From NCBI GenBank assembly GCA_965205205.1, contig CBDBFX010000002.1, positions 2,285,824-2,349,823 on the forward strand: a stretch of 64,000 nucleotides of DNA. Direction: 5' to 3'. A program made the position numbers and the translations under genes. Below, piece by piece: positions 29,901 through 55,563 of this stretch. How positions within the stretch are numbered: position 1 is the first letter of the stretch; each line of letters begins with the position of its first letter. The notes under the pieces are model-generated. The model did not search any database and was not told where the DNA came from. It saw only the letters and a program-made list of their open reading frames with translations. The DNA is from Arenicellales bacterium. GTDB lineage: Bacteria > Pseudomonadota > Gammaproteobacteria > Arenicellales > JAJDZL01.

Positions 29901-30320
29901 AAGGCTCGCGCGCCGGCGCTTCATCGGGATGTTCCACTTCCGTAAACGCTCGAAAATCGGCTGAGGTACAGCTACCGCTGCCGCTTTGTGCCTGCGAACA
30001 ACTTCTTAACCATTTCCATTTTTCGGAACATCAATGCCTCGGTTGCGTCAATCGCGAGGCCGCCAATGCCAGTTCTCGGCCCAATTCAAGGCTGGGTTTC
30101 GGTCTGTCGATTAATGTTGTCTGCAACACACATCTACGGAAATGAACGTTTGATTCAGGAGTTCATTCATTGATCCAAATTGATGTTGACTGTCAATAAC
30201 GTCCTGAATCGAATATTCGCAAATGTGCCGATGCGGTGCGCGGGACTGATCATAGTGCGCTCGGAATGACGGATCTGAGCTGTCGGCCCGTACGGCCCTG
30301 GAACGTCCACCGACGATCCA

Positions 30321-30329
30321 TGCTACAAT
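30321..30329 (+). promoter_or_regulatory. Extended -10-like box TGCTACAAT upstream of paralog 1
   Basis: The 12-mer TGCTACAATGGG is invariant in all 11 units, ~32-40 nt upstream of the MN(K/R)L start. Confidence 0.5.
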
Positions 30330-30360
30330 GGGAGCAGACAAATCACTGATTGATGATGAA

Positions 30361-32010
30361 ATGAACAAGCTCAGACTGCCCGTCGGCTCCCCAGCCTTCC
30401 GCAACATCCGCGAGCGGGGCTGCTACTATGTGGACAAGACGCCTCACATCCACCGACTGACCGAGGGTGGCGAATACTATTTCCTGTCTCGGCCGCGGCG
30501 GTTCGGTAAGACGCTGCTGGTGGACACGATGCAGGAGCTGTTCGAGGGCAGTGAGGAGCTGTTCCGGGGGCTTCACATCCACGACCGCTGGGACTGGTCG
30601 GTGCGCCATCCGGTGGTGCGGCTGAGCTTCGACTCCAACTATGGCGAATCGGGCAGCGTGGACAGTCACGTCATCCGGCAGCTAATCGAACTTGAAGAAG
30701 ACGCGGGCGTTGAACCGCCGCCGCTGGACTACACCGGTGCGGAACGTCTGCAGTATCTGATCCGCAGACTGCATCGCACCACTGGTCGTCAGGTGGTGGT
30801 TCTGGTGGACGAATACGACAAGCCGGTCCTGGACCTGCTTGAAGATCAGGACCAGGCGAGGGCCAACCGCGACTACCTGCGCGGTCTGTACGGCATCATC
30901 AAGGGCTGCGCCCGATACGTCCGTTTCGTGTTCGTGACCGGCATCAGCATGTATTCGAAGGTGAGTCTGTTTTCGGGGCTGAACAATCTTGAGGACATCA
31001 GTCTGGACTCGAAGTACAACACCATCTGCGGCTATACGGATGCGGAAATCGACACGGTGTTCGCACCGGAGCTGCCGGACCTGGAGCGCGCGGACATTCG
31101 GAAGTGGTACAACGGCTACAGCTGGGACTGGCGCGGCAAGGAGAAGGTGTACAACCCCTTCGACGTGCTGCTGCTGTTTAAAAAACGGGAGTTCGAACCC
31201 CACTGGTATGAGACCGGCACGCCGGGCTTTCTGCACGGGCTGATGGGGAAGGTTCAGTTCAGCACCGTGGGGCTGGAGAATCTGCAGATGCACCGTCGAG
31301 AGCTGTCGACGTTCGAGGTGGAGAAGATCCGCCTCAATGCGCTGCTGTTCCAGTGCGGTTATCTGACCATCCAGGACCGTCGGGCTCACAGCGACGGTGA
31401 CTATTACCTGCTCGGCTATCCGAATCTGGAGGTGCGACAGAGTCTGAACCGGGAGCTGCTGGACACGATGGTCGGGGATCTGGGGGAGTTGATGGGCCGG
31501 AGTCGGAACATGTCGCGGTTGCTGGGCGAGAAGGATTTCGAGGGCTTTGCGGTGGCGGTGCATGCGTTTCTGGGCGGGGTGCCATATCATTGGCACACGG
31601 CCGGTGGGGGTCCGCGCCGTTATGAGGCGTATTACGCCAGTCTGCTGTATGTCGGCTTCGCGGCTGGGGGTCATGACGTGCGTGCGGAGGAGTCGTCGGC
31701 GAAGGGCCGATCGGATCTGGTGGTGCTGCTGGGGGGTCGGGTGTTCGTGCTGGAGTGCAAGATGGCGGGTGAGGGGGAAGAGGAGTCGAAGGCGTTGGCG
31801 GGGCTGGCGCAGATTCGGCGTCAGGGCTATGCGGGCAGGTACGGCAACCTGGGTGAGGAGATTCATCTGCTGTCGGTGGTGTTCAGTCGCAAGGAGCGCA
31901 ATCTGACGGCGGTGCGGCTGGAAACCACTGCCATAGCGAACTCCTGTCGGCTGACTTCGCTGCGGGTGCCGGGGTGTTCGGATGGCCGTCTGACGTCCGG
32001 GTGCCGTTGA
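30361..32010 (+). CDS. P-loop ATPase (AAA-ATPase_like type) + C-terminal PD-(D/E)XK nuclease (PDDEXK_9/DUF1703 type), paralog 1, aberrant 3' end
   Basis: Walker A RPRRFGKT, Walker B VVVLVDEYD, nuclease core GRSDLVV...FVLECK. The normal stop was lost by a ~65-bp deletion between GGTGCGG repeats (junction 31911-31917), so the ORF reads into the spacer. Confidence 0.8.
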   Translation: MNKLRLPVGSPAFRNIRERGCYYVDKTPHIHRLTEGGEYYFLSRPRRFGKTLLVDTMQELFEGSEELFRGLHIHDRWDWSVRHPVVRLSFDSNYGESGSVDSHVIRQLIELEEDAGVEPPPLDYTGAERLQYLIRRLHRTTGRQVVVLVDEYDKPVLDLLEDQDQARANRDYLRGLYGIIKGCARYVRFVFVTGISMYSKVSLFSGLNNLEDISLDSKYNTICGYTDAEIDTVFAPELPDLERADIRKWYNGYSWDWRGKEKVYNPFDVLLLFKKREFEPHWYETGTPGFLHGLMGKVQFSTVGLENLQMHRRELSTFEVEKIRLNALLFQCGYLTIQDRRAHSDGDYYLLGYPNLEVRQSLNRELLDTMVGDLGELMGRSRNMSRLLGEKDFEGFAVAVHAFLGGVPYHWHTAGGGPRRYEAYYASLLYVGFAAGGHDVRAEESSAKGRSDLVVLLGGRVFVLECKMAGEGEEESKALAGLAQIRRQGYAGRYGNLGEEIHLLSVVFSRKERNLTAVRLETTAIANSCRLTSLRVPGCSDGRLTSGCR

Positions 32011-32017
32011 CCCGGAC
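31995..32017 (+). terminator. Spacer hairpin GTCCGGGT-N7-ACCCGGAC (after paralog 1)
   Basis: Perfect 8-bp GC-rich stem. A short T-run (GATTTT/GATCT) follows ~10 nt later. The hairpin recurs in most spacers. Confidence 0.4.
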
Positions 32018-32346
32018 CCGTCCCGATCTCCCGCCCACATTCGACGGTGATGGGCTGTCGGTGCTTTCCGGCTGAAACCACCGTTTTCATCATCCCGGAC
32101 CCTCGGAACCGCCGGACTGCGGACCGCTTCGATTGTCTCATGCCGATCAACGCGTGCTGAGATCTGGAGTCCGTCCGATTTTCACGCCCAAAGCGCCGTC
32201 ATGCTGGTTTTCAGGTCAGCATTGAACGGGCCGCAACCGTTGTCTGAAAGAATGAACCTGGGCGATGCGCGGGCCTGATGATGCGCTTCGAATGACGGAT
32301 CTGAGCTGTCAATCTCTCGTATTTTGAAACGTCCGCCGCCGATCGA

Positions 32347-32355
32347 TGCTACAAT
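32347..32355 (+). promoter_or_regulatory. Extended -10-like box TGCTACAAT upstream of paralog 2
   Basis: Same invariant motif. TTGAAA lies 20 nt upstream. Confidence 0.5.
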
Positions 32356-32387
32356 GGGCGCAGACGGTTCACCGATCAAATCCTGAA

Positions 32388-33980
32388 ATGAACAAGCTCA
32401 GACTGCCCATCGGCTCCCCAGCCTTCCGCAACATCCGCGAGCGGGGTTGCTACTATGTGGACAAAACGCCTCACATCCACAGACTGACCGAGGGTGGCGA
32501 GTACTATTTCCTGTCTCGACCGCGGCGGTTCGGGAAGACGCTGCTGTTAGACACGATGCAGGAGCTGTTCGAGGGCAGTGAGGAGCTGTTCCGGGGGCTT
32601 CACATCCACGACCGCTGGGACTGGTCGGTCAGACATCCGGTGGTGCGGCTGAGCTTCGATGCCGACTATGGCGAATCGGATGGACTGGAAAGTGACATCA
32701 ACGATCAGCTGTCCGCCATAGAGGAAGAGGCGGGTCTTGAACCTTCTCCGCCGACACGACCCGGCGCGGTGCGTCTGCGCCATATCATCCGTCAGCTGCA
32801 TCGCGCCACTGGTCGTCAGGTGGTGGTTCTGGTGGACGAGTACGACAAGCCGATCCTCGACCTGCTTGAAGATTCGGACCAGGCGCAGGCCAACCGCGAT
32901 TATCTGCGCGGTCTGTACGGCATCATCAAGGGCTGCGCCCGGCATGTCCGTTTCGTTTTCGTGAACGGCATCAGCATGTATTCGAAGGTGAGTCTGTTTT
33001 CGGGGCTGAACAATCTCAGGGACATCAGTCTGAGTCCGAAGTACAACACCATCTGTGGCTATACGGATGCGGAAATCGACACGGTGTTCGCACCGGAGCT
33101 GCCGGACCTGGAGCGCGGAGACATTCGGAAGTGGTACAACGGCTACAGCTGGGACTGGCGCGGCAAGGAGAAGGTGTACAATCCCTTCGACGTGCTGCTG
33201 CTGTTCGAAGAACGGGAGTTCAAACCTCATTGGTATAGAACTGGCACGCCGGGCTTTCTGCACGGGCTGATGGCGGCTGGTCAGTTCAGCACCGTGGGGC
33301 TGGAGAATCTGCAGATGCACGAGGAGGCGCTGTCGACGTTCGAGGTGGGTAAGATCCGCCTCAATGCGCTGCTGTTCCAGTGCGGTTATCTGACCATCCA
33401 GGACCGTCAGGTTCGCAGCGACGGCGACTACTACCTGCTCGGCTATCCGAATCTGGAGGTGCGTCGAAGTCTGAACCTGGAGCTGCTGGACACGATGGGT
33501 GGGGATCTGGTGGGCCGGAGTCGGAACATGTCGCGGTTGCTGGGCGAGAAGGATTTCGAGGGCTTTGCGGTGGCGGTGCATGCGTTTCTGGGCGGGGTGC
33601 CATATCATTGGCACACGGCCGGTGGGGGTCCGCGCCGTTATGAGGCGTATTACGCCAGTCTGCTGTATGTCGGCTTCGCGGCTGGGGGTCATGACGTGCG
33701 GGCGGAGGAGTCGTCGGCGAAGGGCCGATCGGATCTGGTGGTGCTGCTGGGGGGTCGGGTGTTCGTGCTGGAGTGCAAGATGGCGGGTGAGGGGGAAGAG
33801 GAGTCGAAGGCGTTGGCGGGGCTGGCGCAGATTCGGCATCAGGGCTATGCGGACAGGTACGGCAATCTGGGTGAGGAGATTCATCTGCTGTCGGTGGTGT
33901 TCAGTCGCAAGGAGCGCAATCTGACGACGGTGCGGGTTGAGCAGATGCCCGTTGGTGAGAGCCGGTTCGTCGAGAGCTGA
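32388..33980 (+). CDS. P-loop ATPase + PD-(D/E)XK nuclease, paralog 2
   Basis: Same motifs. Start set at the conserved MNKL Met. Variable block is type beta (DGLESDINDQLSAIEEEAGLEPSPPTRPGAVRLRH). Confidence 0.85.
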   Translation: MNKLRLPIGSPAFRNIRERGCYYVDKTPHIHRLTEGGEYYFLSRPRRFGKTLLLDTMQELFEGSEELFRGLHIHDRWDWSVRHPVVRLSFDADYGESDGLESDINDQLSAIEEEAGLEPSPPTRPGAVRLRHIIRQLHRATGRQVVVLVDEYDKPILDLLEDSDQAQANRDYLRGLYGIIKGCARHVRFVFVNGISMYSKVSLFSGLNNLRDISLSPKYNTICGYTDAEIDTVFAPELPDLERGDIRKWYNGYSWDWRGKEKVYNPFDVLLLFEEREFKPHWYRTGTPGFLHGLMAAGQFSTVGLENLQMHEEALSTFEVGKIRLNALLFQCGYLTIQDRQVRSDGDYYLLGYPNLEVRRSLNLELLDTMGGDLVGRSRNMSRLLGEKDFEGFAVAVHAFLGGVPYHWHTAGGGPRRYEAYYASLLYVGFAAGGHDVRAEESSAKGRSDLVVLLGGRVFVLECKMAGEGEEESKALAGLAQIRHQGYADRYGNLGEEIHLLSVVFSRKERNLTTVRVEQMPVGESRFVES

Positions 33981-34077
33981 TCGGTGCTCATCCGGTGCGG
34001 CTGGAAACCACTGCCATAGCGAACTCCTGTCTGCCGACTGGGTCGCGTGCGGCGGGGTGTTCGGATGGTCGTCTGAC

Positions 34078-34100
34078 GTCCGGGTGCCATTGACCCGGAC
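34078..34100 (+). terminator. Spacer hairpin GTCCGGGT-N7-ACCCGGAC (after paralog 2)
   Basis: Same element. Confidence 0.4.
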
Positions 34101-34430
34101 CCGTCCCGACCTCTCGCCCGCATGCGGTGGTGATGGGCTGTCGCCGCTTTCCGGCTGAAGCTGCCGTTTTCGATCATCCCGGGTCTTCTGAACCGCCGGA
34201 CTGCGGACCGCTTCGATTGTCTCATGCCGATCAACGCGTGCTGAGATCTGGAGTCCGTCCCATTTTCACGCCGAAAGCGCCGTCATGCTGGTTTTCAGGT
34301 CAACATTGAACGGACCGCAACCGGTGTCTGAAAGAATGAACCTGGGCGATGCGCGGGCCTGATGATGCGCTTCGAATGCCGGATCTGAGCCGTTAATCCC
34401 TTCTGTATTGGAATAGTCTTCGTCGATCCA

Positions 34431-34439
34431 TGCTACAAT
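34431..34439 (+). promoter_or_regulatory. Extended -10-like box TGCTACAAT upstream of paralog 3
   Basis: Same invariant motif. TTGGAA lies 20 nt upstream. Confidence 0.5.
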
Positions 34440-34470
34440 GGGCACCGACGTTTCACTGACCGATGATGAA

Positions 34471-36072
34471 ATGAACAGGCTCATACTGCCAATCGGGGAT
34501 TCATCTTTTCGCAACCTCCGGGAAGATGGCTGTTATTATGTGGACAAGACGCCTCATATCCGGAATCTGGTTGAGGGGTCCAGATACTATTTCCTGTCGC
34601 GGCCGCGGCGCTTCGGGAAGACGCTGCTGGTGGACACGCTGCAGGAGCTGTTCGAGGGCGGCGAGGAGCTGTTCCGCGGGCTTCACATCCACGACCACTG
34701 GGACTGGTCGGTCCGCCATCCGGTGGTGCGGCTGAGCTTCGGCTCCGACTATCGCGAATCGGGCAAACTGGAACACAACGTCAACGTCCAGCTGGCGGAA
34801 TTAGAAAAAGATGCGGGTGTTGAACCGCCGCCGTTGGATTACAGCGGTGCGGAACGTCTGCAGTATCTGATCGGCGAACTCCATCATCAGACTGGTCGGC
34901 AGGTGGTGGTGCTGGTGGACGAATACGACAAGCCGATCCTGGACCTGCTTGAAGATCAGGACCGGGCGAGGGCGAACCGCGACTACCTGCGCGGTCTGTA
35001 CGGCATCATCAAGGACTGCGCCCGCCAGGTCCGCTTCGTTTTCGTGACCGGCATCAGCATGTATTCGAAGGGGAGTCTGTTTTCGGGGCTGAACAATCTG
35101 GACGACATCAGTCTGGATCCGGAGTACAACACCATCTGCGGCTACACGGATGTGGAAATTGACACCGTGTTCGCACCGGAGCTGCCGGACCTGGAGCGCG
35201 CGGACATTCGGAAGTGGTACAACGGCTACAGCTGGGACTGGCGCGGCAAGGAGAAGGTGTACAATCCCTTCGACGTGCTGCTGCTGTTTAAAAAACGGGA
35301 GTTCGAACCCCACTGGTATGAGACCGGCACGCCGGGCTTTCTGCACGGGCTGATGGGGAAGGTTCAGTTCAGCACCGTGGGGCTGGAGAATCTGCAGATG
35401 CACGAGGAGGCGCTGTCGACGTTCGAGGTGGGTAAGATCCGCCTCAATGCGCTGCTGTTCCAGTGCGGTTATCTGACCATCCAGGACCGTCAGGTTCGCA
35501 GCGACGACTACTACTACCTGCTCGGCTATCCGAATCTTGAGGTGCGGCAGAGTCTGAATCGGGAGCTGCTGGACACGATGGTCGGGGATCTGGGTGAGTT
35601 GATGGGCCGGAGTCGGAACATGTCGCGGTTGCTGGGCGAGAAGGATTTCGAGGGCTTTGCGGTGGCGGTGCATGCGTTTCTGGGCGGGGTGCCATATCAT
35701 TGGCACACGGCCGGTGGGGGTCCGCGCCGTTATGAGGCGTATTACGCCAGTCTGCTGTATGTCGGCTTCGCGGCTGGGGGTCATGACGTGCGTGCGGAGG
35801 AGTCGTCGGCGAAGGGCCGATCGGATCTGGTGGTGCTGCTGGGGGGTCGGGTGTTCGTGCTGGAGTGCAAGATGGCGGGTGAGGGGGAAGAGGAGTCGAA
35901 GGCGGTGGCGGCATTGGCGCAGATTCGGCGTCAGGGCTATGCGGACAGGTACGGCAATCTGGGGGAGGAGATTCATCTGCTGTCGGTGGTGTTCAGTCGC
36001 AAGGAGCGCAATCTGGCGGCGGTGCAGGTGGAGCGGATGCATCTTGGTGAGAGACGGTTCGTCGAGAGCTGA
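34471..36072 (+). CDS. P-loop ATPase + PD-(D/E)XK nuclease, paralog 3
   Basis: Same motifs. N-terminus type I (ILPIGDSSFRNLREDG). Variable block is alpha-like. Confidence 0.85.
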   Translation: MNRLILPIGDSSFRNLREDGCYYVDKTPHIRNLVEGSRYYFLSRPRRFGKTLLVDTLQELFEGGEELFRGLHIHDHWDWSVRHPVVRLSFGSDYRESGKLEHNVNVQLAELEKDAGVEPPPLDYSGAERLQYLIGELHHQTGRQVVVLVDEYDKPILDLLEDQDRARANRDYLRGLYGIIKDCARQVRFVFVTGISMYSKGSLFSGLNNLDDISLDPEYNTICGYTDVEIDTVFAPELPDLERADIRKWYNGYSWDWRGKEKVYNPFDVLLLFKKREFEPHWYETGTPGFLHGLMGKVQFSTVGLENLQMHEEALSTFEVGKIRLNALLFQCGYLTIQDRQVRSDDYYYLLGYPNLEVRQSLNRELLDTMVGDLGELMGRSRNMSRLLGEKDFEGFAVAVHAFLGGVPYHWHTAGGGPRRYEAYYASLLYVGFAAGGHDVRAEESSAKGRSDLVVLLGGRVFVLECKMAGEGEEESKAVAALAQIRRQGYADRYGNLGEEIHLLSVVFSRKERNLAAVQVERMHLGERRFVES

Positions 36073-36142
36073 TCGGTGATCATTCGGTGCGGCTGGAAAC
36101 CACTGCCATAGCGAACTCCTGTCTGCCGACTGGGTCGCGGGC

Positions 36143-38492
36143 CTCACAACATCCCACAGTTGAATCTATTCATTCTGGATCATGCCTCGCCTTCTGAGCG
36201 AGCGATAGGTAAAGACCGCCTCCCGCAGCAGCACATATCCCTGCCACAGTTTCATGACGCCCGGCAGCGGCTGACTGCGACGCGGATGAAAACCCGCCAG
36301 CCGCGCCACATCGACGACGAAACGGCGGATGTCCGGCGCCTCGCCGGGTGGCGGCTGCGGGCGGCGGATGCCATAATCATCCAGGCGGGTATTCAGCACC
36401 AGCAGGTCATCTTCACTCACCACCTCGTCGGCCGGCGTCTGCGGGCTGTCGCGCGCCATCCGATCGAGGCTGAACACCTCACAGGCGGTGATGGCATCGA
36501 ACGTCAGGCACTTGCGCAGGTCATCGGCATGGTCCAGCTGCCGCTTCTCGATGCCGGCGCCGGTCTTCAGGGTGCGGAAGTACTCCTCAATGGTCCAGCG
36601 CAGCTCATAGTGCCGTAGGGCGGTGCTGGCGCCGTCGGCATCGGCCTGCCCCTCGGTGGTCAGCAGCAGCCAGTGCAGCGGCTGCTCGCCGGCCGGCGGG
36701 TCCGCTTCAATCGCACTGACCGCCAGCATCTCAATCGGCGCCGTATCCGCCCCCGAGGGCGGTCGCCGCGGCGCCGCCAGCCGCACCCGCGCCGCCCGCA
36801 ACGCCAGCCGCACCTCGCGCCCCGCACGCTTCCGGCCACCCCCGCAGGCCACCACCTGCACGGTCTTCTCCGCCAGCGACGGCAACCTCTCCATGTGCGC
36901 CCACAGACACTCGCGCTTCCCGCCTGCCACCAGCACCTCGCGGCGACTCCCGCGCCGCACCCGAACCAGCAGCCCGGCCGACTGCGAACGCGCCTGATCC
37001 AGCAGTCCCCACAGGTCGCCCTCCCGATCGCATACCGTCACCACCCGCGTCCGCGCACAGGCCCGCTCCAGCTCACAGGCCCGCGCCAGACCCTCGCCCC
37101 AGCGATCGCTTTCCAGCTCCAGCCGATCCGCATAGTCCGCATCCAGCGCATACACCCCCAGCGGTCGCCCCGCCTCGTTCACCGCCAGACCCACATGCGC
37201 CTTCAGACCCTGCACGCCCGACCCACCGCCACCAATGTTCACCAGCCCCGCCGTCGCCGGCCGACTCGCATAGTTCAGCGCCGTCGTGTCCTGCAGCGCC
37301 AGCACCACCGGCTCCAGCCGACAGCGATCCACCATCGCCGCCCAGTGCGGCTCCAAGATGTGCTCCATTGTCACCCTCCCGTTCGATAACAGCCGATAAG
37401 CCGCACGCAAGTCCGCCCGCCGCGGAAAGATCTGCGGCAGCGACGCCCCCGGCCGCTCCAGCCACGCCCGACCCATGCGCAAGATCCGCGCGCACACCCG
37501 ACCGTCCGGATGCCGGCTGCGGCCATATTCCACATCCGCCCAATCCGTCTTCTCATCCATGTGCAGCTCAGGCGCCGCCTGAATCTGCCGCACCGGCTCG
37601 GCGCACAGCACCGTCCGCCAGCCGCGCACCAGCGGTTTCAGCCACACCGCCCGCACCACCGTGCCTCCGCTCGGCGAGCGACCCGAGGTGCCGCCCTCAC
37701 CGCAACGCCAACCCGCCGCCCGGTAGCTCGTCCCCGGATGCTCGGGCGCCACATACGTGTACGCCAGTACCGGTCGTACATTGTACTTCACCTCCCAGTC
37801 CTCAACCACCTGCGCACACGCCAGCTCCAGCACCCGAGAGGCCAGACCGTGAACCCGCACCCCCGGCAGAATCAGCAGCCGCTGGTTGTTCAGCACCCGA
37901 CTCAGATTCGACACCCGCGCCTCCACCGACCAGCCGATGAACCCATCGCGCACTTTCTGGTGCCAGCTCGCCGCACAGAAGTTCAGCCCGCCCAGACGAC
38001 CGTAGCGCGAAGAACACACCCAGTAGCGCAGCTGGCCACCCGGCGCCTGACGCCAGCCCTGCGGGTGATGCGTGCGCATCATCGACTCCCACTGCCGCCG
38101 TTCCTCGTCGCCCGACACCGGCTCGACCGTCACCTCACCCAGCGCTGACAGCGGGCAACGCAGCGCGCGATCTGGGTAAGCCACCTCGGGGGGCGCCTCA
38201 CCACCGCCCGAACCGAATGCCGGGTGCGGCGCCGGCAACGCCACGCCCAGCCGCGCAGCCAGCACCGGCAGCGCCTTGCGGGCCGCCGCCACACACAGCT
38301 CACCCGTCGGACCGGTCCACTGGTCGCGCTCGCACAGCCCGCGGGCCAGGGCGTTGCGCGACACACCCGGCGTCGACACCGCCTTCTGAAACCAGTCAAT
38401 GGTCTGAGCGTGAAACTGATGCAGGCCTACTTTCATGGTAGGCCCTGTTTTATCACATTATGTTCTGAGAATCAAGTGTGGGCCCTTGTGAG
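36143..38492 (-). mobile_element. IS4-family (Tn5-like) insertion sequence, copy B, 2350 bp, inserted in the array spacer between paralogs 3 and 4
   Basis: Termini are CTCACAACATCCCACAGTTGAATC and ...GAATCAAGTGTGGGCCCTTGTGAG. 9-bp TSD GTCGCGGGC at 36134-36142 and 38493-38501. Uninterrupted spacers carry this 9-mer once (e.g. 48956-48964). Confidence 0.95.
36166..38436 (-). CDS. IS4-family DDE transposase (Tn5-like), copy B
   Basis: 756 aa, highly similar but not identical to copy A. Same YELRWTIEEYFRTLK signature. Confidence 0.9.
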   Translation of the reverse strand: MKVGLHQFHAQTIDWFQKAVSTPGVSRNALARGLCERDQWTGPTGELCVAAARKALPVLAARLGVALPAPHPAFGSGGGEAPPEVAYPDRALRCPLSALGEVTVEPVSGDEERRQWESMMRTHHPQGWRQAPGGQLRYWVCSSRYGRLGGLNFCAASWHQKVRDGFIGWSVEARVSNLSRVLNNQRLLILPGVRVHGLASRVLELACAQVVEDWEVKYNVRPVLAYTYVAPEHPGTSYRAAGWRCGEGGTSGRSPSGGTVVRAVWLKPLVRGWRTVLCAEPVRQIQAAPELHMDEKTDWADVEYGRSRHPDGRVCARILRMGRAWLERPGASLPQIFPRRADLRAAYRLLSNGRVTMEHILEPHWAAMVDRCRLEPVVLALQDTTALNYASRPATAGLVNIGGGGSGVQGLKAHVGLAVNEAGRPLGVYALDADYADRLELESDRWGEGLARACELERACARTRVVTVCDREGDLWGLLDQARSQSAGLLVRVRRGSRREVLVAGGKRECLWAHMERLPSLAEKTVQVVACGGGRKRAGREVRLALRAARVRLAAPRRPPSGADTAPIEMLAVSAIEADPPAGEQPLHWLLLTTEGQADADGASTALRHYELRWTIEEYFRTLKTGAGIEKRQLDHADDLRKCLTFDAITACEVFSLDRMARDSPQTPADEVVSEDDLLVLNTRLDDYGIRRPQPPPGEAPDIRRFVVDVARLAGFHPRRSQPLPGVMKLWQGYVLLREAVFTYRSLRRRGMIQNE

Positions 38493-38529
38493 GTCGCGGG
38501 CGGCGGGGTGTTCGGATGTGTCGTCTGAC

Positions 38530-38552
38530 GTCCGGGTGCCATTGACCCGGAC
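38530..38552 (+). terminator. Spacer hairpin GTCCGGGT-N7-ACCCGGAC (after paralog 3 and the IS)
   Basis: Same element, lying just right of the IS copy B insertion. Confidence 0.4.
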
Positions 38553-38880
38553 CCGTCCTGATTTTCCGCCCGCATGCGGCGGTGATGGGCTGTCGGCGCA
38601 TTCAGGCTGAAACCACCGTTTTCATCATCCCGGCACTCTGAACCGCCGGACTGCGGACCGCTTCGATTGTCTCATGCCGATCAACGCGTGCTGAGATCTG
38701 GAGTCCGTCCCATTTTCACGCCGAAAGCGCCGTCATGCTGGTTTTCAGGTCAACATTGAACGGACCGCAACCGGTGTCTGAAAGAATGAACCTGGGCGAT
38801 GCGCGGGCCTGATGATGCGCTTCGAATGACGGATCTGAGCCGTTAATCCCTTCTGTATTGGAATAGTCTTCGTCGATCCA

Positions 38881-38889
38881 TGCTACAAT
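38881..38889 (+). promoter_or_regulatory. Extended -10-like box TGCTACAAT upstream of paralog 4
   Basis: Same invariant motif. Confidence 0.5.
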
Positions 38890-38920
38890 GGGCACCGACG
38901 TTTCACTGACCGATGATGAA

Positions 38921-40963: not shown

Positions 40964-40972
40964 TGCTACAAT
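40964..40972 (+). promoter_or_regulatory. Extended -10-like box TGCTACAAT upstream of paralog 5
   Basis: Same invariant motif. Confidence 0.5.
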
Positions 40973-41003
40973 GGGCACCGACGTTTCACTGACCGATGAT
41001 GAA

Positions 41004-42605: not shown

Positions 42606-43063
42606 CGTTCGGTGATCATTCGGTGCGGCTGGAAGCGGCTGTCGCCGCCGGTTTCAGACTGGGTTCTGCCGCCTTCGACGCGGTACCGGGTGTTTGGATG
42701 GTCGTCTGACATCCCGGTGCGATTGCCCCGGATCCGTCCTGATTTTTCGCCCGCATTCGACGGTGATGGGCTGTCGGCGCTTTCCGGCTGAAGCTGCCGT
42801 TTTCGATCATCCCGGGTCTTCTGAACCGCCGGACTGCGGACCGCTTCGATTGTCTCATGCCGATCCCCGCGTCATGAGATCTGAAGACCGTCCGATTTTC
42901 ACGCCCAAAGCGCCGTCATGCTGGTTTTCAGGTCAGCATTGAACGGACCGCAACCGTTGTCTGAAAGAATGAACCTGGGCGATGCGCGGGCCTGATGATG
43001 CGCTTCGAATGACGGATCTGAGCTGTCAATCTCTCGTATTTTGAAACGTCCGCCGTCGATCCA

Positions 43064-43072
43064 TGCTACAAT
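43064..43072 (+). promoter_or_regulatory. Extended -10-like box TGCTACAAT upstream of paralog 6
   Basis: Same invariant motif. Confidence 0.5.
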
Positions 43073-43104
43073 GGGTACAGACGGTTCACCGATCAAATCC
43101 TAAA

Positions 43105-45162: not shown

Positions 45163-45171
45163 TGCTACAAT
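45163..45171 (+). promoter_or_regulatory. Extended -10-like box TGCTACAAT upstream of paralog 7
   Basis: Same invariant motif. Confidence 0.5.
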
Positions 45172-45202
45172 GGGCACCGACGTTTCACTGACCGATGATG
45201 AA

Positions 45203-47251: not shown

Positions 47252-47260
47252 TGCTACAAT
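47252..47260 (+). promoter_or_regulatory. Extended -10-like box TGCTACAAT upstream of paralog 8
   Basis: Same invariant motif. Confidence 0.5.
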
Positions 47261-47292
47261 GGGCACTGACGGTTCACTGATCAAATCCTGAA

Positions 47293-48894: not shown

Positions 48895-48991
48895 TCGGTG
48901 CTCATCCGGTGCGGCTGGAAACCACTGCCATAGCGAACTCCTGTCTGCCGACTGGGTCGCGGGCGGCGGGGTGTTCGGATGGTCGTCTGAC

Positions 48992-49014
48992 GTCCGGGTG
49001 CCATTGACCCGGAC
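48992..49014 (+). terminator. Spacer hairpin GTCCGGGT-N7-ACCCGGAC (after paralog 8)
   Basis: Same element, followed by CCGTCCTGATTTTCC and the palindrome CCGCATGCGG. Confidence 0.4.
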
Positions 49015-49342
49015 CCGTCCTGATTTTCCGCCCGCATGCGGCGGTGATGGACTGTCGGCGCATTCAGGCTGAAACCACCGTTTTCATCATCCCGGCACTC
49101 TGAACCGCTGGACTGCGGACCGCTTCGATTGTCTCATGCCGATCCCCGCGTCATGAGATCTGAAGGCCGTCCGATTTTCACGCCCAAAGCGCCGTCATGC
49201 TGTTTTTCAGGTCAACATTGAACGGACCGCAACCGTTGTCTGAAAGAATGAACCTGGGCGATGCGCGGGCCTGATGATGCGCTTCGAATGGCGGATCTGA
49301 GATGTCAATCCCTCGTATTTTGAAACGTCCGCCGACGATCGA

Positions 49343-49351
49343 TGCTACAAT
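49343..49351 (+). promoter_or_regulatory. Extended -10-like box TGCTACAAT upstream of paralog 9
   Basis: Same invariant motif. Confidence 0.5.
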
Positions 49352-49383
49352 GGGCACTGACGGTTCACCGATCAAATCCTGAA

Positions 49384-50985
49384 ATGAACAAGCTCAGACT
49401 GCCCATCGGCTCCCCAGCCTTCCGCAACATCCGCGAGCGGGGCTGCTACTATGTGGACAAGACGCCTCACATTCACAGACTGACCGAGGGTGGCGAATAC
49501 TATTTCCTGTCTCGGCCGCGGCGGTTCGGGAAGACGCTGCTGGTGGACACGATGCAGGAGCTGTTCGAGGGCAGTGAGGAGCTGTTCCGGGGGCTTCACA
49601 TCCACGACCGCTGGGACTGGTCCGTCCGCCATCCGGTGGTGCGGCTGAGCTTCGACTCTGAATATCGCGCACCGGAACGACTGGAAGACAATGTCAACAA
49701 CCAGCTGAATAACATTGAAAAGTACTCGGGTCTCGAACCGATTTCACCGACGCAGCACGGACCGGACCGACTGTACAATCTGATCCTCGCTCTGCATCAT
49801 CAGACTGGTCGTCAGGTGGTGGTCCTGGTGGACGAATACGACAAGCCGATCCTGGACCTGCTGGAGCGGAAAAAACTGGCGAAGGCCAACCGCGATTATC
49901 TGCGCGGTCTGTACGGCGTCATCAAGGGCTGTGCCCGGCATGTCCGTTTCGTTTTCGTGACCGGCATCAGCATGTATTCGAAGGTGAGTCTGTTTTCGGG
50001 GCTGAACAATCTGGACGACATCAGTCTGGATCCGGAGTACAACACCATCTGTGGCTACACGGATGTGGAAATTGACACCGTGTTCGCACCGGAGCTGCCG
50101 GACCTGGAGCGCGCGGACATTCGGAAGTGGTACAACGGCTACAGCTGGGACTGGCGCGGTGGGGAGAAGGTGTACAACCCCTTCGACGTGCTGCTGCTGT
50201 TTAAAAAACGGGAGTTCAAACCTCATTGGTATAGAACTGGCACGCCGGGCTTTCTGCACGGGCTGATGGCGGCTGGTCAGTTCAGCACCGTGGGGCTGGA
50301 GAATCTGCAGATGCACGAGGAGGCGCTGTCGACGTTCGAGGTGGGTAAGATCCGCCTCAATGCGCTGCTGTTTCAGTGCGGTTATCTGACCATCCGGGAC
50401 CGTCAGGCTCGCAGTGACGGCGACTACTACCTGCTCGGCTATCCGAATCTGGAGGTGCGGCAGAGTCTGAACCGGGAGCTGCTGGACACGATGGTTGGGG
50501 ATCTGGAGGAGTTGATGGGCCGGAGTCGGAACATGTCGCGGTTGCTGGGCGAGAAGGATTTCGAGGGCTTTGCGGTGGCGGTGCATGCGTTTCTGGGCGG
50601 GGTGCCATATCATTGGCACACGGCCGGTGGGGGTCCGCGCCGTTATGAGGCGTATTACGCCAGTCTGCTGTATGTCGGCTTCGCGGCTGGGGGTCATGAC
50701 GTGCGTGCGGAGGAGTCGTCGGCGAAGGGCCGATCGGATCTGGTGGTGTTGCTGGGGGATCGGGTGTTCGTGCTGGAGTGCAAGATGGCGGGTGAGGGGG
50801 AAGAGGAGTCGAAGGCGGTGGCGGGGCTGGCGCAGATTCGGCGTCAGGGCTATGCGGACAGGTACGGCAATCTGGGTGAGGAGATTCATCTGCTGTCGGT
50901 GGTGTTCAGTCGCAAGGAGCGCAATCTGGCGACGGTGCGGGTGGAACGGATGCGCCTTGATGAGAGACGGTTCGTCAAGAGCTGA
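49384..50985 (+). CDS. P-loop ATPase + PD-(D/E)XK nuclease, paralog 9
   Basis: Same motifs. N-terminus type R with variable block gamma, a combination not seen in paralogs 4, 6 or 11. Confidence 0.85.
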   Translation: MNKLRLPIGSPAFRNIRERGCYYVDKTPHIHRLTEGGEYYFLSRPRRFGKTLLVDTMQELFEGSEELFRGLHIHDRWDWSVRHPVVRLSFDSEYRAPERLEDNVNNQLNNIEKYSGLEPISPTQHGPDRLYNLILALHHQTGRQVVVLVDEYDKPILDLLERKKLAKANRDYLRGLYGVIKGCARHVRFVFVTGISMYSKVSLFSGLNNLDDISLDPEYNTICGYTDVEIDTVFAPELPDLERADIRKWYNGYSWDWRGGEKVYNPFDVLLLFKKREFKPHWYRTGTPGFLHGLMAAGQFSTVGLENLQMHEEALSTFEVGKIRLNALLFQCGYLTIRDRQARSDGDYYLLGYPNLEVRQSLNRELLDTMVGDLEELMGRSRNMSRLLGEKDFEGFAVAVHAFLGGVPYHWHTAGGGPRRYEAYYASLLYVGFAAGGHDVRAEESSAKGRSDLVVLLGDRVFVLECKMAGEGEEESKAVAGLAQIRRQGYADRYGNLGEEIHLLSVVFSRKERNLATVRVERMRLDERRFVKS

Positions 50986-51439: not shown

Positions 51440-51448
51440 TGCTACAAT
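51440..51448 (+). promoter_or_regulatory. Extended -10-like box TGCTACAAT upstream of paralog 10
   Basis: Same invariant motif. Confidence 0.5.
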
Positions 51449-51479
51449 GGGCACCGACGTTTCACTGACCGATGATGAA

Positions 51480-52997
51480 ATGAACAGGCTCATACTGCCC
51501 ATCGGCTCCCCAGCCTTCCGCAACATCCGCGAGCGGGGCTGCTACTATGTGGACAAGACGCCCCACATCCACCGACTGACCGAGGGTGGCGAGTACTATT
51601 TCCTGTCGCGGCCGCGGCGCTTCGGGAAGACGCTGCTGGTGGACACGATGCAGGAGCTGTTCGAGGGCAGTGAGGAGCTGTTCCGCGGGCTTCACATCCA
51701 CGACCGATGGGACTGGTCGGTGCGCCATCCGGTGGTGCGGCTGAGCTTCGACTCCAACTATGGCGAATCGGATGGACTGGAAAGTGACATCAGCGAGCAG
51801 CTATCCGCCATAGAGGAAGATGCGGGTCTTGAATCTTCTCCGCCGACACGACCCGGTGCGGTGCGGCTGCGCCATGTCATCCGTCAGCTGCATCGCACCA
51901 CCGGTCGTCAGGTGGTGGTTCTGGTGGACGAATACGACAAGCCGATCCTGGATCTGCTTGAGCGGCCGAAACTGGCGAAGGCCAACCGCGATTATCTGCG
52001 CGGTCTGTACGGCGTCATCAAGGGCTGCGCCCGCCATGTCCGTTTCGTGTTCGTGACCGGCATCAGCATGTATTCGAAGGTGAGTCTGTTCTCGGGACTG
52101 AACAATCTGGACGACATCAGTCTGGATCCGGAGTATGCCACCATCTGTGGCTATACGGATGCGGATCTTGACACGGTGTTCGCCCCGGAGCTGTCGGGAC
52201 TGAAACGAAAGACCATAAGGAAATGGTACAATGGCTACAGCTGGCATGAACTCGGTGAGGAGAAGGTGTACAATCCCTTCGATGTGCTGCTGCTGTTCAA
52301 AAAAAGAAAGTTCAAGCCGCATTGGTACAGAACCGGCACGCCGGGCTTTCTGCACAAGCTGATGGCGGAAGGCGGGTTCAGCACGGTGGGACTGGAGCAG
52401 CTGGAGATGCACGAGGAGGAGCTGTCGACGTTCGAGGTGGAGGAGATGCGCCTCAATGCGCTGCTGTTCCAGTGCGGCTATCTGACCATCCGGAGCCGTG
52501 ACAGGCGCGGCAACAACACTTACTACCTGCTGGGTTATCCGAACCAGGAGGTTCGTCAGAGTCTGAACCGGGAGCTGCTGGGGACGGTGAGCGGAGATCT
52601 GAACGGTGCGCTAACGGCGGGCGACCAGCTGTCTCGGCTGCTCGCCGACAACGACTTCGAAGGCTTCGGCGTGGCGCTGCATTCGTTCTATGCCGGTCTT
52701 CCGCATCAGTGGTATGATGTCAGTGAGGTGGCCCGCTATGAGGCGTTCTACGCCAGTGTGCTGTATGCCAGTCTGAACGCCGTGCGGGTTGACATGCGGG
52801 CGGAGGAGTCGACGGCCAAGGGTCGAGCGGATCTGGTGGTGCTGCTGGCCGATCAGGTGTTCGTGCTGGAGATCAAGGTGGTGGCGGCCGGGGAGGCGAT
52901 ACACCTGATAGCGGTGGTGTTCACCGGTGAGGAGCGCAATCTGGAGGCGCTGCGGGTGGAAGAGTTGCGCGGTGGTGAGAAGAAGTTCGTCATATGA
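51480..52997 (+). CDS. P-loop ATPase + PD-(D/E)XK nuclease, paralog 10 (divergent C-terminal half, internal in-frame deletion)
   Basis: Same divergent C-terminal class as paralog 5. It lacks 26 codons (EVESKVVESLAQMREKGYANKYRGRG region) between CGGGGAG repeats (junction 52889-52895), plus 2 further codons. Confidence 0.75.
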   Translation: MNRLILPIGSPAFRNIRERGCYYVDKTPHIHRLTEGGEYYFLSRPRRFGKTLLVDTMQELFEGSEELFRGLHIHDRWDWSVRHPVVRLSFDSNYGESDGLESDISEQLSAIEEDAGLESSPPTRPGAVRLRHVIRQLHRTTGRQVVVLVDEYDKPILDLLERPKLAKANRDYLRGLYGVIKGCARHVRFVFVTGISMYSKVSLFSGLNNLDDISLDPEYATICGYTDADLDTVFAPELSGLKRKTIRKWYNGYSWHELGEEKVYNPFDVLLLFKKRKFKPHWYRTGTPGFLHKLMAEGGFSTVGLEQLEMHEEELSTFEVEEMRLNALLFQCGYLTIRSRDRRGNNTYYLLGYPNQEVRQSLNRELLGTVSGDLNGALTAGDQLSRLLADNDFEGFGVALHSFYAGLPHQWYDVSEVARYEAFYASVLYASLNAVRVDMRAEESTAKGRADLVVLLADQVFVLEIKVVAAGEAIHLIAVVFTGEERNLEALRVEELRGGEKKFVI

Positions 52998-53455
52998 CGG
53001 TCGGTGATCATTCGATGCGGGTGGAAGCGGCTGTCGCCGCCGGTTTCAGACTGGGTTCTGCCGCCTTCGACGCGGTACCGGGTGTTTGGATGGTCGTCTG
53101 ACATCCCGGTGCGATTGCCCCGGATCCGTCCTGATTTTTCGCCCGCATGCGGCGGTGATGGGCTGTCGGCGCTTTCCGGCTGAAGCTGCCGTTTTCGATC
53201 ATACCGGGTCTTCTGAACCGCCGGACTGCGGACCGCTTCGATTGTCTCATGCCGATCCCCGCGTCATGAGATCTGAAGGCCGTCCGATTTTCACGCCCAA
53301 AGCGCCGTCATGCTGGTTTTCAGGTCAACATTGAACGGACCGCAACCGTTGTCTGAAAGAATGAACCTGGGCGATGCGCGGGCCTGATGATGCGCTTCGA
53401 ATGACGGATCTGAGCTGTCAATCTCTCGTATTTTGAAACGTCCGCCGTCGATCCA

Positions 53456-53464
53456 TGCTACAAT
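53456..53464 (+). promoter_or_regulatory. Extended -10-like box TGCTACAAT upstream of paralog 11
   Basis: Same invariant motif. Confidence 0.5.
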
Positions 53465-53496
53465 GGGTACAGACGGTTCACCGATCAAATCCTAAA

Positions 53497-55098
53497 ATGA
53501 ACAAGCTCATACTGCCCATCGGGGATTCATCCTTTCGCAACCTCCGGGAAGATGGCTGTTATTATGTGGACAAGACGCCTCATATCCGGAATCTGGTTGA
53601 GGGGTCCAGATACTATTTCCTGTCGCGGCCGCGCCGGTTCGGGAAGACGCTGCTGGTGGACACGCTGCAGGAGCTGTTCGAGGGCGGCGAGGAGCTGTTC
53701 CGGGGGCTTCACATCCACGACCACTGGGACTGGACCGTCCGCCACCCGGTGGTGCGGCTGAGCTTCGGCTCCAACTATGGCGCCCCGGGCCGACTGGAAG
53801 ACAATGTCAGCAACCAGTTGACCACCATTGAAAAGTACTCGGGTCTCGAACCGGCTTCACCGACGCAGTACGGACCGGACCGACTGTACAATCTCATTCT
53901 CGCTCTCCATCATCAGAGTGGTCGTCAGGTGGTGGTGCTGGTGGACGAATACGACAAGCCGATCCTGGATCTGCTGGAGCGACCGAAACTGGCGAAGGCC
54001 AACCGCGATTACCTGCGCGGCCTGTACGGCGTCATCAAGGACTGTGCCCGATACGTACGTTTCGTCTTCGTGACCGGCGTCAGCATGTATTCGAAGGTGA
54101 GTCTGTTTTCGGGACTGAACAATCTCAGGGACATCAGTCTGAGTCCGAAGTACAACACCATCTGCGGCTATACGGATGCGGAAATCGATGCGGTGTTCGC
54201 ACCGGAGCTGGCGGGACTGGAGCGCGAAGACATCCGGAAGTGGTACAACGGCTACAGCTGGGACTGGCGCGGCAAGGAGAAGGTGTACAACCCTTTCGAC
54301 GTGCTGCTGCTGTTCGAAGAACGGGAGTTTAAACCTCATTGGTATAGAACCGGCACGCCGGGCTTTCTGCACAAGCTGATGGCGGAGAATCAGTTCAGCA
54401 CGGTGGGGCTGGAGCAGCTGGAGATGCACGAGGAGGCGCTGTCGACGTTCGAGGTGGAGAAGATCCGCCTCAATGCGCTGCTGTTCCAGTGTGGTTATCT
54501 GACCATCCGGGACCGTCAGGCTCGCAGTGACGGCGACTACTACCTGCTCGGCTATCCGAATCTGGAGGTGCGGCAGAGTCTGAACCGGGAGCTGCTGGAC
54601 ACGATGGTTGGGGATCTGGAGGAGTTGATGGGACGGAGTCGGAACATGTCGCGGTTGCTGGGCGAGAAGGATTTCGAGGGCTTTGCGGTGGCGGTGCATG
54701 CGTTTCTGGGCGGGGTGCCATATCATTGGCACACGGCCGGTGGGGGTCCGCGCCGTTATGAGGCGTATTACGCCAGTCTGCTGTATGTCGGCTTCGCGGC
54801 TGGGGGTCATGACGTGCGGGCGGAGGAGGCATCGGCGAAAGGCCGTTCGGATCTGGTGGTGGTGCTGGGGGGTCGGGTGTTCGTGCTGGAGTGCAAGATG
54901 GCGGGTGAGGGGGAAGAGGAGTCGAAGGCGGTGGCGGGGCTGGCGCAGATTCGGCGTCAGGGCTATGCGGACAGGTACGGCAATCTGGGGGAGGAGATTC
55001 ATCTGCTGTCGGTGGCGTTCAGTCGCAAGGAGCGCAATCTGACGGCGGTGCAGGTGGAGCGGATGCCCGTTGGTGAGAGACGGTTCGTCGAGAGCTGA
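53497..55098 (+). CDS. P-loop ATPase + PD-(D/E)XK nuclease, paralog 11
   Basis: Same motifs. It is the last unit and is followed by a final partial spacer ending ~55415. Confidence 0.85.
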   Translation: MNKLILPIGDSSFRNLREDGCYYVDKTPHIRNLVEGSRYYFLSRPRRFGKTLLVDTLQELFEGGEELFRGLHIHDHWDWTVRHPVVRLSFGSNYGAPGRLEDNVSNQLTTIEKYSGLEPASPTQYGPDRLYNLILALHHQSGRQVVVLVDEYDKPILDLLERPKLAKANRDYLRGLYGVIKDCARYVRFVFVTGVSMYSKVSLFSGLNNLRDISLSPKYNTICGYTDAEIDAVFAPELAGLEREDIRKWYNGYSWDWRGKEKVYNPFDVLLLFEEREFKPHWYRTGTPGFLHKLMAENQFSTVGLEQLEMHEEALSTFEVEKIRLNALLFQCGYLTIRDRQARSDGDYYLLGYPNLEVRQSLNRELLDTMVGDLEELMGRSRNMSRLLGEKDFEGFAVAVHAFLGGVPYHWHTAGGGPRRYEAYYASLLYVGFAAGGHDVRAEEASAKGRSDLVVVLGGRVFVLECKMAGEGEEESKAVAGLAQIRRQGYADRYGNLGEEIHLLSVAFSRKERNLTAVQVERMPVGERRFVES

Positions 55099-55563
55099 TC
55101 GGTGCTCATCCGGTGCGGCTGGAAACCACTGCCATAGCGAACTCTTGCCTGCCGACTGGGTCGCGGGCGCCGGGGTGTTCGGATAGCCGTCTGACGTCCG
55201 GGTGCCATTGACCCGGACACGTCCCGATTTTCCGCCCGCATGCGGCGGTGATGGGCTGTCGGCGCTTTCAGGCCGAAACTGCCGTTTTCATCATCCCGGA
55301 CTATCGGAGCAGCCGGACTGCGGACCGCTTCAATTCTCTCATGCCGGTCCCCGCGTGCTGAGATCCGGAGTCCGTCCGATTTTCACGCCAAAAGTTCCGT
55401 CATGCTGGTTTTCATGTTACATCGGATTGACCAAAACTGGCACAGTAAGCCGAAATAATTGTGTTTGGCACAATTGTAGATGGTCGCCTAGAGTTATCGT
55501 CTCTACATTTTCGGGGTCGTAACAGTATTTTCAATCTATACTCTGAGAAACTTTTTTAATGTC

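Follow-up and report, generated by a model that had tools for sequence, protein, structure and literature searches.

DUF1703 proteins have been known for almost twenty years, with no member assigned an experimental function. Their architecture was worked out in silico in 2007 by Knizewski et al. (PMC1913061), who described an AAA+ module mapped to Cdc6/clamp-loader structures, a helical middle and a restriction-endonuclease-like domain. A large expansion was later described by Siozios et al. 2019 (PMC6387759) in Cardinium hertigii cCpun, where 25 DUF1703 paralogs of unknown function show intragenic recombination and an inferred horizontal origin. Those paralogs are old and divergent (mean amino-acid identity 39%), and the family was also noted in Rickettsia and Simkania (PMC6387759). 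Here we analyse a tandem array of eleven DUF1703 genes that occupies 30.2-55.4 kb of a 64,000-nucleotide stretch of contig CBDBFX010000002.1 (the whole stretch is referred to below as the window). We propose, with a probability of roughly 0.4, that the array represents a stand-alone repertoire of ATP-gated nucleases for genetic conflict, likeliest in defence against foreign DNA.

Both domains of the family were identified in the array proteins by Pfam profiles. The scan covered four copies, and precomputed domains are the same for all paralogs. AAA-ATPase_like (PF09820) matched over the entire profile (positions 1-201 of 201; E-values 1e-55 to 2e-57; 186-195 bits against a cutoff of 26.1) and PDDEXK_9 (PF08011) matched with E-values of 1e-15 to 5e-18 (58-66 bits against a cutoff of 25.5). 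These results support the first-pass annotation of this DNA, made by eye from the sequence, in its assignment of a P-loop ATPase followed by a PD-(D/E)XK nuclease. The Walker A (RPRRFGKT) and Walker B (VVLVDEYDKP) motifs and nuclease motifs I-III (RYEA[YF]YAS, GR[SA]DLVV, FVLE[CI]K) were found in 11 of 11 copies, in agreement with the same annotation. It had also placed AQ(I/M)R..GYA..Y in every copy; this motif IV is present in ten, an in-frame deletion of ~28 residues having taken it out of copy 10, for which the PF08011 match is partial (32 bits, positions 2-56 of 105) and whose activity may be impaired by the loss. In an alignment of 56 diverse homologues, with identity down to 38%, the Walker A residues R55-K61 were invariant together with D161, Y163, D164, K165, E433, E476, K478 and Y501, and nearly invariant positions (at least 90%) were E162, D463 and Q495.

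Copy 3 served as the query for all searches and structure models. No homologue was found by sequence in the PDB, and the family matched nothing in NCBIfam or PHROGs. A first AlphaFold2 (AF2) model built from a shallow alignment was too poor to be used (predicted local distance difference test, pLDDT, 69.5), and a second model based on a diverse alignment reached a pLDDT of 81.8 and a predicted template modelling score (pTM) of 0.81. Foldseek searches of this model against the PDB and BFVD returned weak matches only, at the level of single domains. The nearest full-length fold was Aeropyrum pernix ORC2/Cdc6 (probability 0.96 over 422 columns, a weak match with an E-value of 2e-3 and template modelling scores of 0.24-0.32), and classical AAA+ proteins were also among the nearest weak matches. 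For the nuclease domain the nearest fold was the PD-(D/E)XK domain of Wolbachia CinB/CidB (best E-value 7.5e-4, 14% identity), a generic fold match. The fold assignment is consistent with the published description of DUF1703 (PMC1913061), with which the array proteins share both domains, the non-canonical Walker A signature RPRRFGK[ST], the Walker B signature DEYD, motifs I-IV and the four-part architecture. No defining difference was found, and the array proteins are members of the family. By homology, each protein is a Cdc6/ORC-like AAA+ ATPase with a helical middle and a C-terminal PD-(D/E)XK nuclease.

The genes are arranged head to tail on one strand, as originally claimed (coordinates are given in Table 1). 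The listing of open reading frames (ORFs) for the window contains eleven + strand ORFs between 30328 and 55098, all intact, with lengths of 516-560 aa rather than the 516-549 aa first reported. When units were anchored on the conserved MN[KR]L, the start-to-start distance was 2017-2101 bp, with a sole exception of 4450 bp that is accounted for by the insertion of a 2350-bp insertion sequence (IS). The spacers, initially described as conserved and ~450 bp long, can indeed be aligned with one another over their whole length, but their size is not uniform (335-497 bp, with spacer 1 short; the IS-bearing spacer 3 measures 2815 bp in total). Homology to the spacers continues for ~95 bp 5' of copy 1 and ~330 bp 3' of copy 11, and the array therefore extends from ~30233 to ~55425. 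The join between trailer and leader is identical at every spacer, which fits a single original duplication that unequal crossing-over then multiplied. Similarity is highest between units separated by five positions, for which the mean identity is 0.919 (0.85-0.89 for the remaining offsets), and this pattern hints at an old duplication of a 5-unit block (~10.4 kb) inside the array. The spacers contained no consistently open small ORF, Rfam match or tRNA and were homologous neither to relatives' loci nor to the remainder of the window; on this comparison they are lineage-specific. These ORF, Rfam, tRNA and homology checks gave no sign of a partner RNA or peptide encoded in the spacers.

The units are 79-95% identical at the DNA level and are built as block mosaics, in which segments are common to non-adjacent copies. 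This bears out the view of the array as a diversified tandem family. The pairwise homoplasy index (PHI) was 0.18, compared with 0.457 +/- 0.005 after permutation, and none of 1000 permutations gave a value as low. All four gametes were present in 37% of informative site pairs, and the Hudson-Kaplan lower bound (Rm) requires at least 78 breakpoints within 2.1 kb. Copies 6 and 11 are identical over the first 964 alignment columns. The C-terminal (nuclease) type of copies 5 and 10 is not that of the other copies and is seen in copy 5 as the divergent type B (FVLEIK, AQMREKGYANKY). Copy 1 has an aberrant C-terminal tail that runs into the shortened spacer 1.

The array is one part of a larger family on the same 3,805,514-bp contig, where a protein search detected at least 32 clusters at 90% identity, corresponding to ~60 distinct sequences. 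Thirty paralogs from outside the window were retrieved, the dispersed copies being compared as proteins. For the module analysis, 41 paralogs were each divided into nine segments and the segments were clustered at 80% identity, which yielded 39 distinct module combinations. There were 4 N-terminal alleles, 15 alleles of a variable segment named the V module, and three main C-terminal types, with the N and V alleles freely reassorted across the three C-terminal types. Taken together, these alignments show that array copies have exchanged segments among themselves, and that the exchange extends to 30 or more dispersed paralogs on this chromosome.

The V module comprises the 51 residues between ...RLSF and G(R/Q)QVVVLVDEYD, that is, from beta2 to the Walker B strand, and is where the entropy of the whole protein peaks. 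Identity within V drops to 0.31 inside this one genome, no higher than between phyla (mean 0.37), whereas for the core that flanks it the identity is 0.95 inside the genome and 0.78 from one genome to another. Synonymous divergence (dS) was 0.53 in V versus 0.15 in the adjacent core, which argues that the V alleles are old and not merely fast-evolving. Further peaks of diversity were observed in the N-terminal module (residues 17-50) and at residues 301-400, and the most homogenised stretches run from Walker A to beta2 and from Walker B to the sensor. The uneven distribution of diversity had been recognised in the first-pass annotation, but its division into a variable ATPase half and a homogenised nuclease half is too coarse. 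As read from these identities, gene conversion holds the ATPase core at ~95% identity within the genome, and the V module, the N-terminal module and residues 301-400 escape this homogenisation.

In the AF2 model, the V module forms two confident helices (residues 110-126 and 137-152) joined by a Pro-rich loop, and sits between the strand at 96-100 and the Walker B strand at 156-161. On both helices the periodicity of the variability is strongest at 90-95 degrees per residue, and Q118, L119, E123, R140, L141, I145, L148 and H149 are invariant. This helical periodicity, combined with the invariant residues, places the variation on one exposed face of the predicted hairpin. In AAA+ proteins of the Cdc6/ORC/DnaA type, a DNA-contacting initiator-specific motif is located between beta2 and the Walker B strand, and we infer from the model that the V insert occupies the position of this motif. 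The ratio of nonsynonymous to synonymous substitution (dN/dS) was 0.16-0.26 in the ATPase core, 0.61 in the V region, 0.71 at residues 301-400 and 0.55 in the nuclease half. To judge by these ratios, purifying selection acts on all eleven copies and the genes are functional.

A scan for relatives, with one genome per species, identified more than 586 encoding stretches, of which the best 80 (50-61% identity) were examined. All of these 80 come from metagenome-assembled genomes (MAGs), many with sponge-symbiont names or origins, and they are assigned to Arenicellales, Ca. Poriferihabitaceae, Pseudomonadales, Paracoccaceae and Latescibacterota, and further to Vicinamibacterales, Bryobacterales, Spirochaetia and Binatia. 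The marine-sponge-symbiont MAGs that share the closest relatives represent at least 8 orders or phyla. Identities of 50-60% across phyla argue for horizontal spread within the habitat. A survey of relatives for arrays, as proposed in the first-pass annotation, revealed tandem sets of 2-5 copies in many of them. A second clade was found with a plasmid-borne copy from Calditerrivibrio (NC_014749.1) as the query; its copies occur at 60-85% identity in hot-spring Aquificota, Deferribacterota, Caldisericia and other phyla. The Calditerrivibrio plasmid itself (58.7 kb) contains five matching places, a tandem pair included. The family comprises 16,303 clusters at 50% identity (E <= 1e-3), with many paralogs, in keeping with its earlier description as widespread, often multi-copy and of unestablished function.

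In the Bryobacterales sequence OZ242039.1, copies that lie far apart have ~250-290 bp of 5' flank in common, as well as more than 240 bp of 3' flank, indicating that a discrete unit of ~2 kb, consisting of the gene plus its flanks, disperses in this genome. The Bryobacterales 5' leader contains a TGTAGAAT -10-like box and GC-rich palindromic segments, possibly combining a conserved promoter with a structured leader; in the window spacers nothing equivalent was recognised. The host of the array could be placed with the help of a fused glycyl-tRNA synthetase gene in the window (GlyQS, alpha + beta; 22107-25286, 1059 aa), whose nearest relatives show 70-72% identity, one of them being located on an Arenicellales MAG contig. 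Based on these GlyQS relatives and on the homologues in sponge-symbiont MAGs, the host is probably an Arenicellales-like gammaproteobacterium living in a sponge. We found no published work linking sponges to the DUF1703 family.

The proposed conflict repertoire would operate as follows. Each protein would be a self-contained nuclease gated by ATP. The exposed hypervariable face of V, together with the N-terminal module, would set what each paralog recognises, whether a nucleic-acid sequence or structure or a protein of the invader. Recognition of the target would lead to ATP-dependent assembly, which would switch on the nuclease. The array and the dispersed copies would in this way form a shuffled recognition repertoire for genetic conflict, most likely aimed at foreign DNA in the virus-rich sponge habitat. 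The ecology inferred from sequence comparison is of the kind expected for a conflict system and speaks for this proposal (as do the conserved domains and catalytic residues, the predicted fold, the recombination among copies, the module repertoire and the diversity of V), with habitat clades that cross phyla, arrays of 2-5 copies and one relative flanked by CRISPR and restriction-modification (R-M) genes. In that relative, on a 2.1-Mb Ca. Poriferihabitaceae contig, a single copy has a type III-B CRISPR-Cas locus (Cmr3-5, Cas1/Cas2) on one side and a type I R-M system (HsdR/M/S) on the other, the clearest defence-island context among the loci seen. A bolder version, which we consider doubtful, would make the array and its at least 30 dispersed relatives a combinatorially shuffled repertoire of innate-immune receptors, a bacterial counterpart of NLR and plant R-gene clusters, convergently acquired and expanded in sponge symbionts of many phyla. 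On this analogy, the hypervariable helix-loop-helix within the Cdc6/ORC-like ATPase would read invader DNA or proteins and license the fused nuclease.

A number of observations weigh against a role in defence. The neighbours of the array in the window are housekeeping genes (rsmA, pdxA, plsC-like, glyQS, glnA, metK, ahcY), and PADLOC-DB 2.0 gave no model match for three copies (E <= 0.01). The first-pass annotation had suggested this search, which matched no known defence system; its view of a diversified tandem family stands, its defence-type reading remains a hypothesis, and the immediate setting is not a defence island. Around relatives, the 134 nearest non-family neighbours (~75 loci) fell into 113 Pfam families, none of them found more than three times. 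The lack of a recurrent neighbour family, which speaks for the stand-alone character proposed above, argues that there is no partner gene, and no conserved partner was present in the window or at the ~75 loci, as had been claimed for known partners in the window. Some 8-10 of the 134 nearest neighbours match defence models (mad3, type I-U Cas5/6, Cas1, CapP, RmrA), and genes 8-10 kb away match at least as many; these near and far counts are rough, having been made by inspection of the top 25 families listed and without a genome-wide baseline. On these rough counts, guilt by association is not demonstrated. The family was carried by 29 out of 50,697 records of phages, each of the 29 being an uncultured faecal contig, by 65 of 72,556 plasmids, and by 199 stretches in 2.9 million IMG/VR contigs, none of the sponge clade. 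Region-averaged dN/dS exceeded 1 in no region of the protein. Neither a sigma-70 nor a terminator consensus could be made out in the spacers, which makes expression of each copy putative. The equation of V with the initiator-specific motif rests on the order of secondary-structure elements and on weak fold matches. In the literature we found no experiment on any DUF1703 member, and the expansion in endosymbionts with tiny genomes (Cardinium, PMC6387759) fits a selfish or effector role equally well or better. Finally, most of the same facts are fitted by a selfish nuclease.

This last explanation is the main rival. It holds that the genes are homing-like ATPase-nuclease units that propagate themselves within and between genomes, with no need of a benefit to the host. 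The hypervariable surface would then set the sites of cleavage or insertion, and breaks made by the nuclease would drive gene conversion among paralogs. Scattered contexts, a dispersing unit and conversion tracts are explained about equally well by selfish propagation and by defence. Copies found alone or a few in a row, surrounded by unrelated housekeeping genes and lacking a partner, the ~2-kb unit of the Bryobacterales genome, habitat-specific clades that cross phylum boundaries and massive recombination among copies would all be natural for such a family, as would its expansion in reduced endosymbiont genomes (PMC6387759) and the finding that defence genes, by inspection, are no commoner beside the gene than 8-10 kb away. 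Harder to reconcile with selfishness are the purifying selection on all domains in eleven copies and the near-absence of the family from phages, plasmids and IMG/VR. Moreover, the uniform trailer-to-leader junction is expected of unequal crossing-over and not of repeated insertion, and neither terminal inverted repeats nor target duplications were observed at the units, the array having had no inverted-repeat search. On balance we regard the selfish explanation as a serious one, though unlikely. Neutral retention offers a different account, in which the proteins serve cellular DNA metabolism (repair, recombination or replication restart) and the copy number is a by-product of tandem duplication. 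The Cdc6/ORC-like ATPase, the Holliday-junction-resolvase-like nuclease and the housekeeping neighbours would suit this role, but the family is patchy, horizontally transferred and highly multi-copy, and old V alleles have been kept against a homogenising background. This last pattern argues for selected diversity and not for redundancy, and we consider a role in DNA metabolism improbable.

An effector role in symbiosis, which was speculated for the Cardinium expansion (PMC6387759), would have the nucleases delivered to the sponge or to neighbouring microbes, with paralog diversity tracking host targets. Host-associated bacteria show expansion of the family, which is carried by sponge symbionts of many phyla and by Cardinium, Rickettsia and Simkania (PMC6387759). 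The array adjoins a giant adhesin-like gene with fn3, Calx-beta and PKD domains, a relative adjoins a 17,044-aa gene, and the nuclease domain finds its best structural match in CinB/CidB, the cytoplasmic-incompatibility nuclease of Wolbachia. That match is to a generic PD-(D/E)XK fold, however, and the conserved N-terminus (MNKLxLPIG..., read off the sequences) has no hydrophobic stretch resembling a signal peptide. Secretion-system genes were not conserved neighbours at the ~75 loci, and close homologues abound in free-living hot-spring thermophiles; delivery as an effector thus appears quite improbable. The array could also be an artefact in which one or a few true copies were inflated or mis-joined, because tandem repeats of 2.1 kb are well known to cause assembly errors and reads were not available here. 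The copy number of eleven is that of the assembly, in which the record is a single 3.8-Mb contig. Against an artefact, the units differ by 5-21% and each is a unique mosaic, one spacer is marked by an IS with an intact 9-bp target duplication, and arrays of 2-5 copies also occur in independent genomes. No two units are identical over more than 964 bp at a stretch, and apart from this one run the maximum is 425 bp, so that long accurate reads could resolve the array. We therefore judge misassembly to be very improbable, and the conflict repertoire remains the reading that we prefer.

The locus amounts to a compact natural experiment, in which eleven nearly identical genes vary chiefly by discrete modules. 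It offers a precise candidate for the determinant of specificity, namely the exposed face of the 51-residue hairpin, and an ecological signal in the form of one clade shared by unrelated sponge symbionts with dozens of copies per genome. If the proteins are ATP-gated nucleases with paralog-specific targets, they would constitute a new class of single-gene conflict system and would go some way towards explaining how symbionts of sponges withstand a large burden of foreign DNA. If they are selfish, they would be mobile nuclease genes of a type not recognised before.

Table 1. Coordinates of the tandem array, its copies and spacers, and the insertion sequence in spacer 3 (positions in the window; aa, amino acids; V, variable module)
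Feature	Coordinates	Strand	Details
Whole tandem array	30233..55425	+	Leader of unit 1 through trailer of unit 11, from spacer alignment
Copy 1	30328..32010	+	560 aa; conserved start 30361; V module 30631-30783; nuclease core 31705-31761
Spacer 1	32011..32345	+	335 bp; lacks first ~120 bp of other spacers
Copy 2	32346..33980	+	544 aa; conserved start 32388; V module 32658-32810, class 'DGLESDI...RPGAVRLRH'
Spacer 2	33981..34437	+	457 bp; representative conserved mosaic spacer
Copy 3	34438..36072	+	544 aa; conserved start 34471; V module 34741-34893
Spacer 3	36073..38887	+	2815 bp; holds the IS insertion
Left target-site duplication	36134..36142	.	9 bp, GTCGCGGGC
IS4-family insertion sequence	36143..38492	-	2350 bp; inverted ends CTCACAA.../...TTGTGAG
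Right target-site duplication	38493..38501	.	9 bp, GTCGCGGGC; perfect match to left copy
Copy 4	38888..40513	+	541 aa; conserved start 38921; V module 39191-39343, class 'RLEDNV.NQL..IEKYSGLEP'
Spacer 4	40514-40970	+	Spacer alignment
Copy 5	40971..42605	+	544 aa; conserved start 41004; V module 41274-41426
Spacer 5	42606-43062	+	Spacer alignment
Copy 6	43063..44706	+	547 aa; conserved start 43105; V module 43375-43527
Spacer 6	44707-45169	+	Spacer alignment
Copy 7	45170..46795	+	541 aa; conserved start 45203; V module 45473-45625
Spacer 7	46796-47292	+	Spacer alignment
Copy 8	47293..48894	+	533 aa; ORF begins right at conserved MNKL; V module 47563-47715
Spacer 8	48895-49341	+	Spacer alignment
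Copy 9	49342..50985	+	547 aa; conserved start 49384; V module 49654-49806
Spacer 9	50986-51446	+	Spacer alignment
Copy 10	51447..52997	+	516 aa; conserved start 51480; V module 51750-51902; C-terminal type B
Spacer 10	52998-53454	+	Spacer alignment
Copy 11	53455..55098	+	547 aa; conserved start 53497; V module 53767-53919

The IS in spacer 3 encodes a transposase of the IS4 family (ORF 36166-38436, - strand, 756 aa) with an N-terminal domain that matches Druantia DruA/DUF4338 (PF14236, E-value about 1e-19). A second copy of the element, 94-95.5% identical to the first, is present at ~15.6-18.0 kb (transposase 15656-17971, + strand) and carries a 45-bp tandem duplication at 17342-17431. It interrupts the first member of a tandem set of Rpn/YhgA-like genes (PF04754, another PD-(D/E)XK family) located at 14800-21400, in which repeats at ~14800-15600, 18259-19300 and 20318-21400 recur with a period of 2059 bp. 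The region had been called rich in mobile DNA on account of Rpn elements and two IS families; the Rpn/YhgA set was found, and the insertion sequences belong to one family in two copies.

Downstream of the array, an AT-rich non-coding kilobase (low-GC stretch, 55450-56450) is followed by a giant + strand ORF at 56451-63998 that runs off the end of the window (at least 2516 aa). Its product contains eight fn3 domains together with Calx-beta, PKD and Big_9 domains, and is adhesin-like with eukaryote-like domains. In one relative, the 17,044-aa gene lies directly beside three family copies. At the other end of the window, a three-gene cluster at 2099-5629 encodes SBP56 (selenium-binding/methanethiol-oxidase-like), SCO1/SenC and a MauG-like di-haem cytochrome c peroxidase, an arrangement that we take to resemble methanethiol oxidation (mtoX) loci. 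A second low-GC stretch, at 5700-7400, has a GC content of about 0.42 compared with 0.52-0.60 around it and holds small ORFs without a Pfam match.

Several described systems resemble the array proteins in part. The defence modules McrBC, DUF4297-HerA, Septu, Gabija and OLD/PARIS, encoded by two genes or by one fusion (PMC10952713, PMC11291478), likewise couple a P-loop NTPase to a nuclease effector, and with modules of the McrBC type the array proteins may have in common an ATP-dependent assembly that plausibly gates cleavage; these likenesses are analogies. Here, by contrast, ATPase and nuclease are fused in a single protein of ~530 aa that has no PADLOC match, the ATPase is closest to Cdc6/ORC and not to the McrB, HerA or ABC types (on weak fold matches), and no defence phenotype is known; the proteins are counted neither with the McrBC type nor with any other PADLOC system. 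A review lists PF09820 among the domains of RADAR RdrA, with which a PF09820-type ATPase is possibly shared (PMC10952713). Membership of RADAR was rejected, as neither the window nor the ~75 relative loci contain an RdrB adenosine deaminase and PADLOC gave no RdrA match. RdrA was not among the top 50 structural matches and, to our knowledge, has no fused PD-(D/E)XK domain.

Clusters of NLR and plant R genes, and Avs/STAND proteins, offer a functional analogy in their tandem paralogs, unequal crossing-over, exposed hypervariability and coupling of an NTPase to an effector, whereas the variable element here is a 51-residue hairpin inside the ATPase domain. The proteins are not STAND/Avs members: Pfam assigns PF09820 and PF08011 only, with no NACHT or NB-ARC domain, and the model contains no repeats of the LRR, TPR or WD40 type. 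Nor is the unit an insertion sequence or transposon, given one uniform trailer-to-leader junction and no transposase domain; a repeat scan of positions 1-30300 found no inverted repeats, the array itself not having been searched for them. Antigenic-variation cassettes were likewise rejected, since each of the eleven copies is of full length and has a start codon of its own as well as a homologous 5' leader.

The closest parallel is the Cardinium expansion, likewise a large and recombining set of paralogs in a host-associated bacterium. Because that expansion has been published, the phenomenon was already known in kind, and with the architecture dating from 2007 (PMC1913061) and the expansion from 2019 (PMC6387759) the novelty of the locus is lower than the first-pass annotation implied. 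The copies described here differ from those of Cardinium in being 72-100% identical, with their diversity focused on discrete modules, and in lying as eleven head-to-tail units with conserved spacers, whereas the draft-genome study describes no single tandem array. New here are the eleven-unit head-to-tail array, the quantified reassortment of modules in a set of over 40 paralogs, the mapping of diversity to a single helical face of the predicted structure and a sponge-symbiont clade that crosses phyla.

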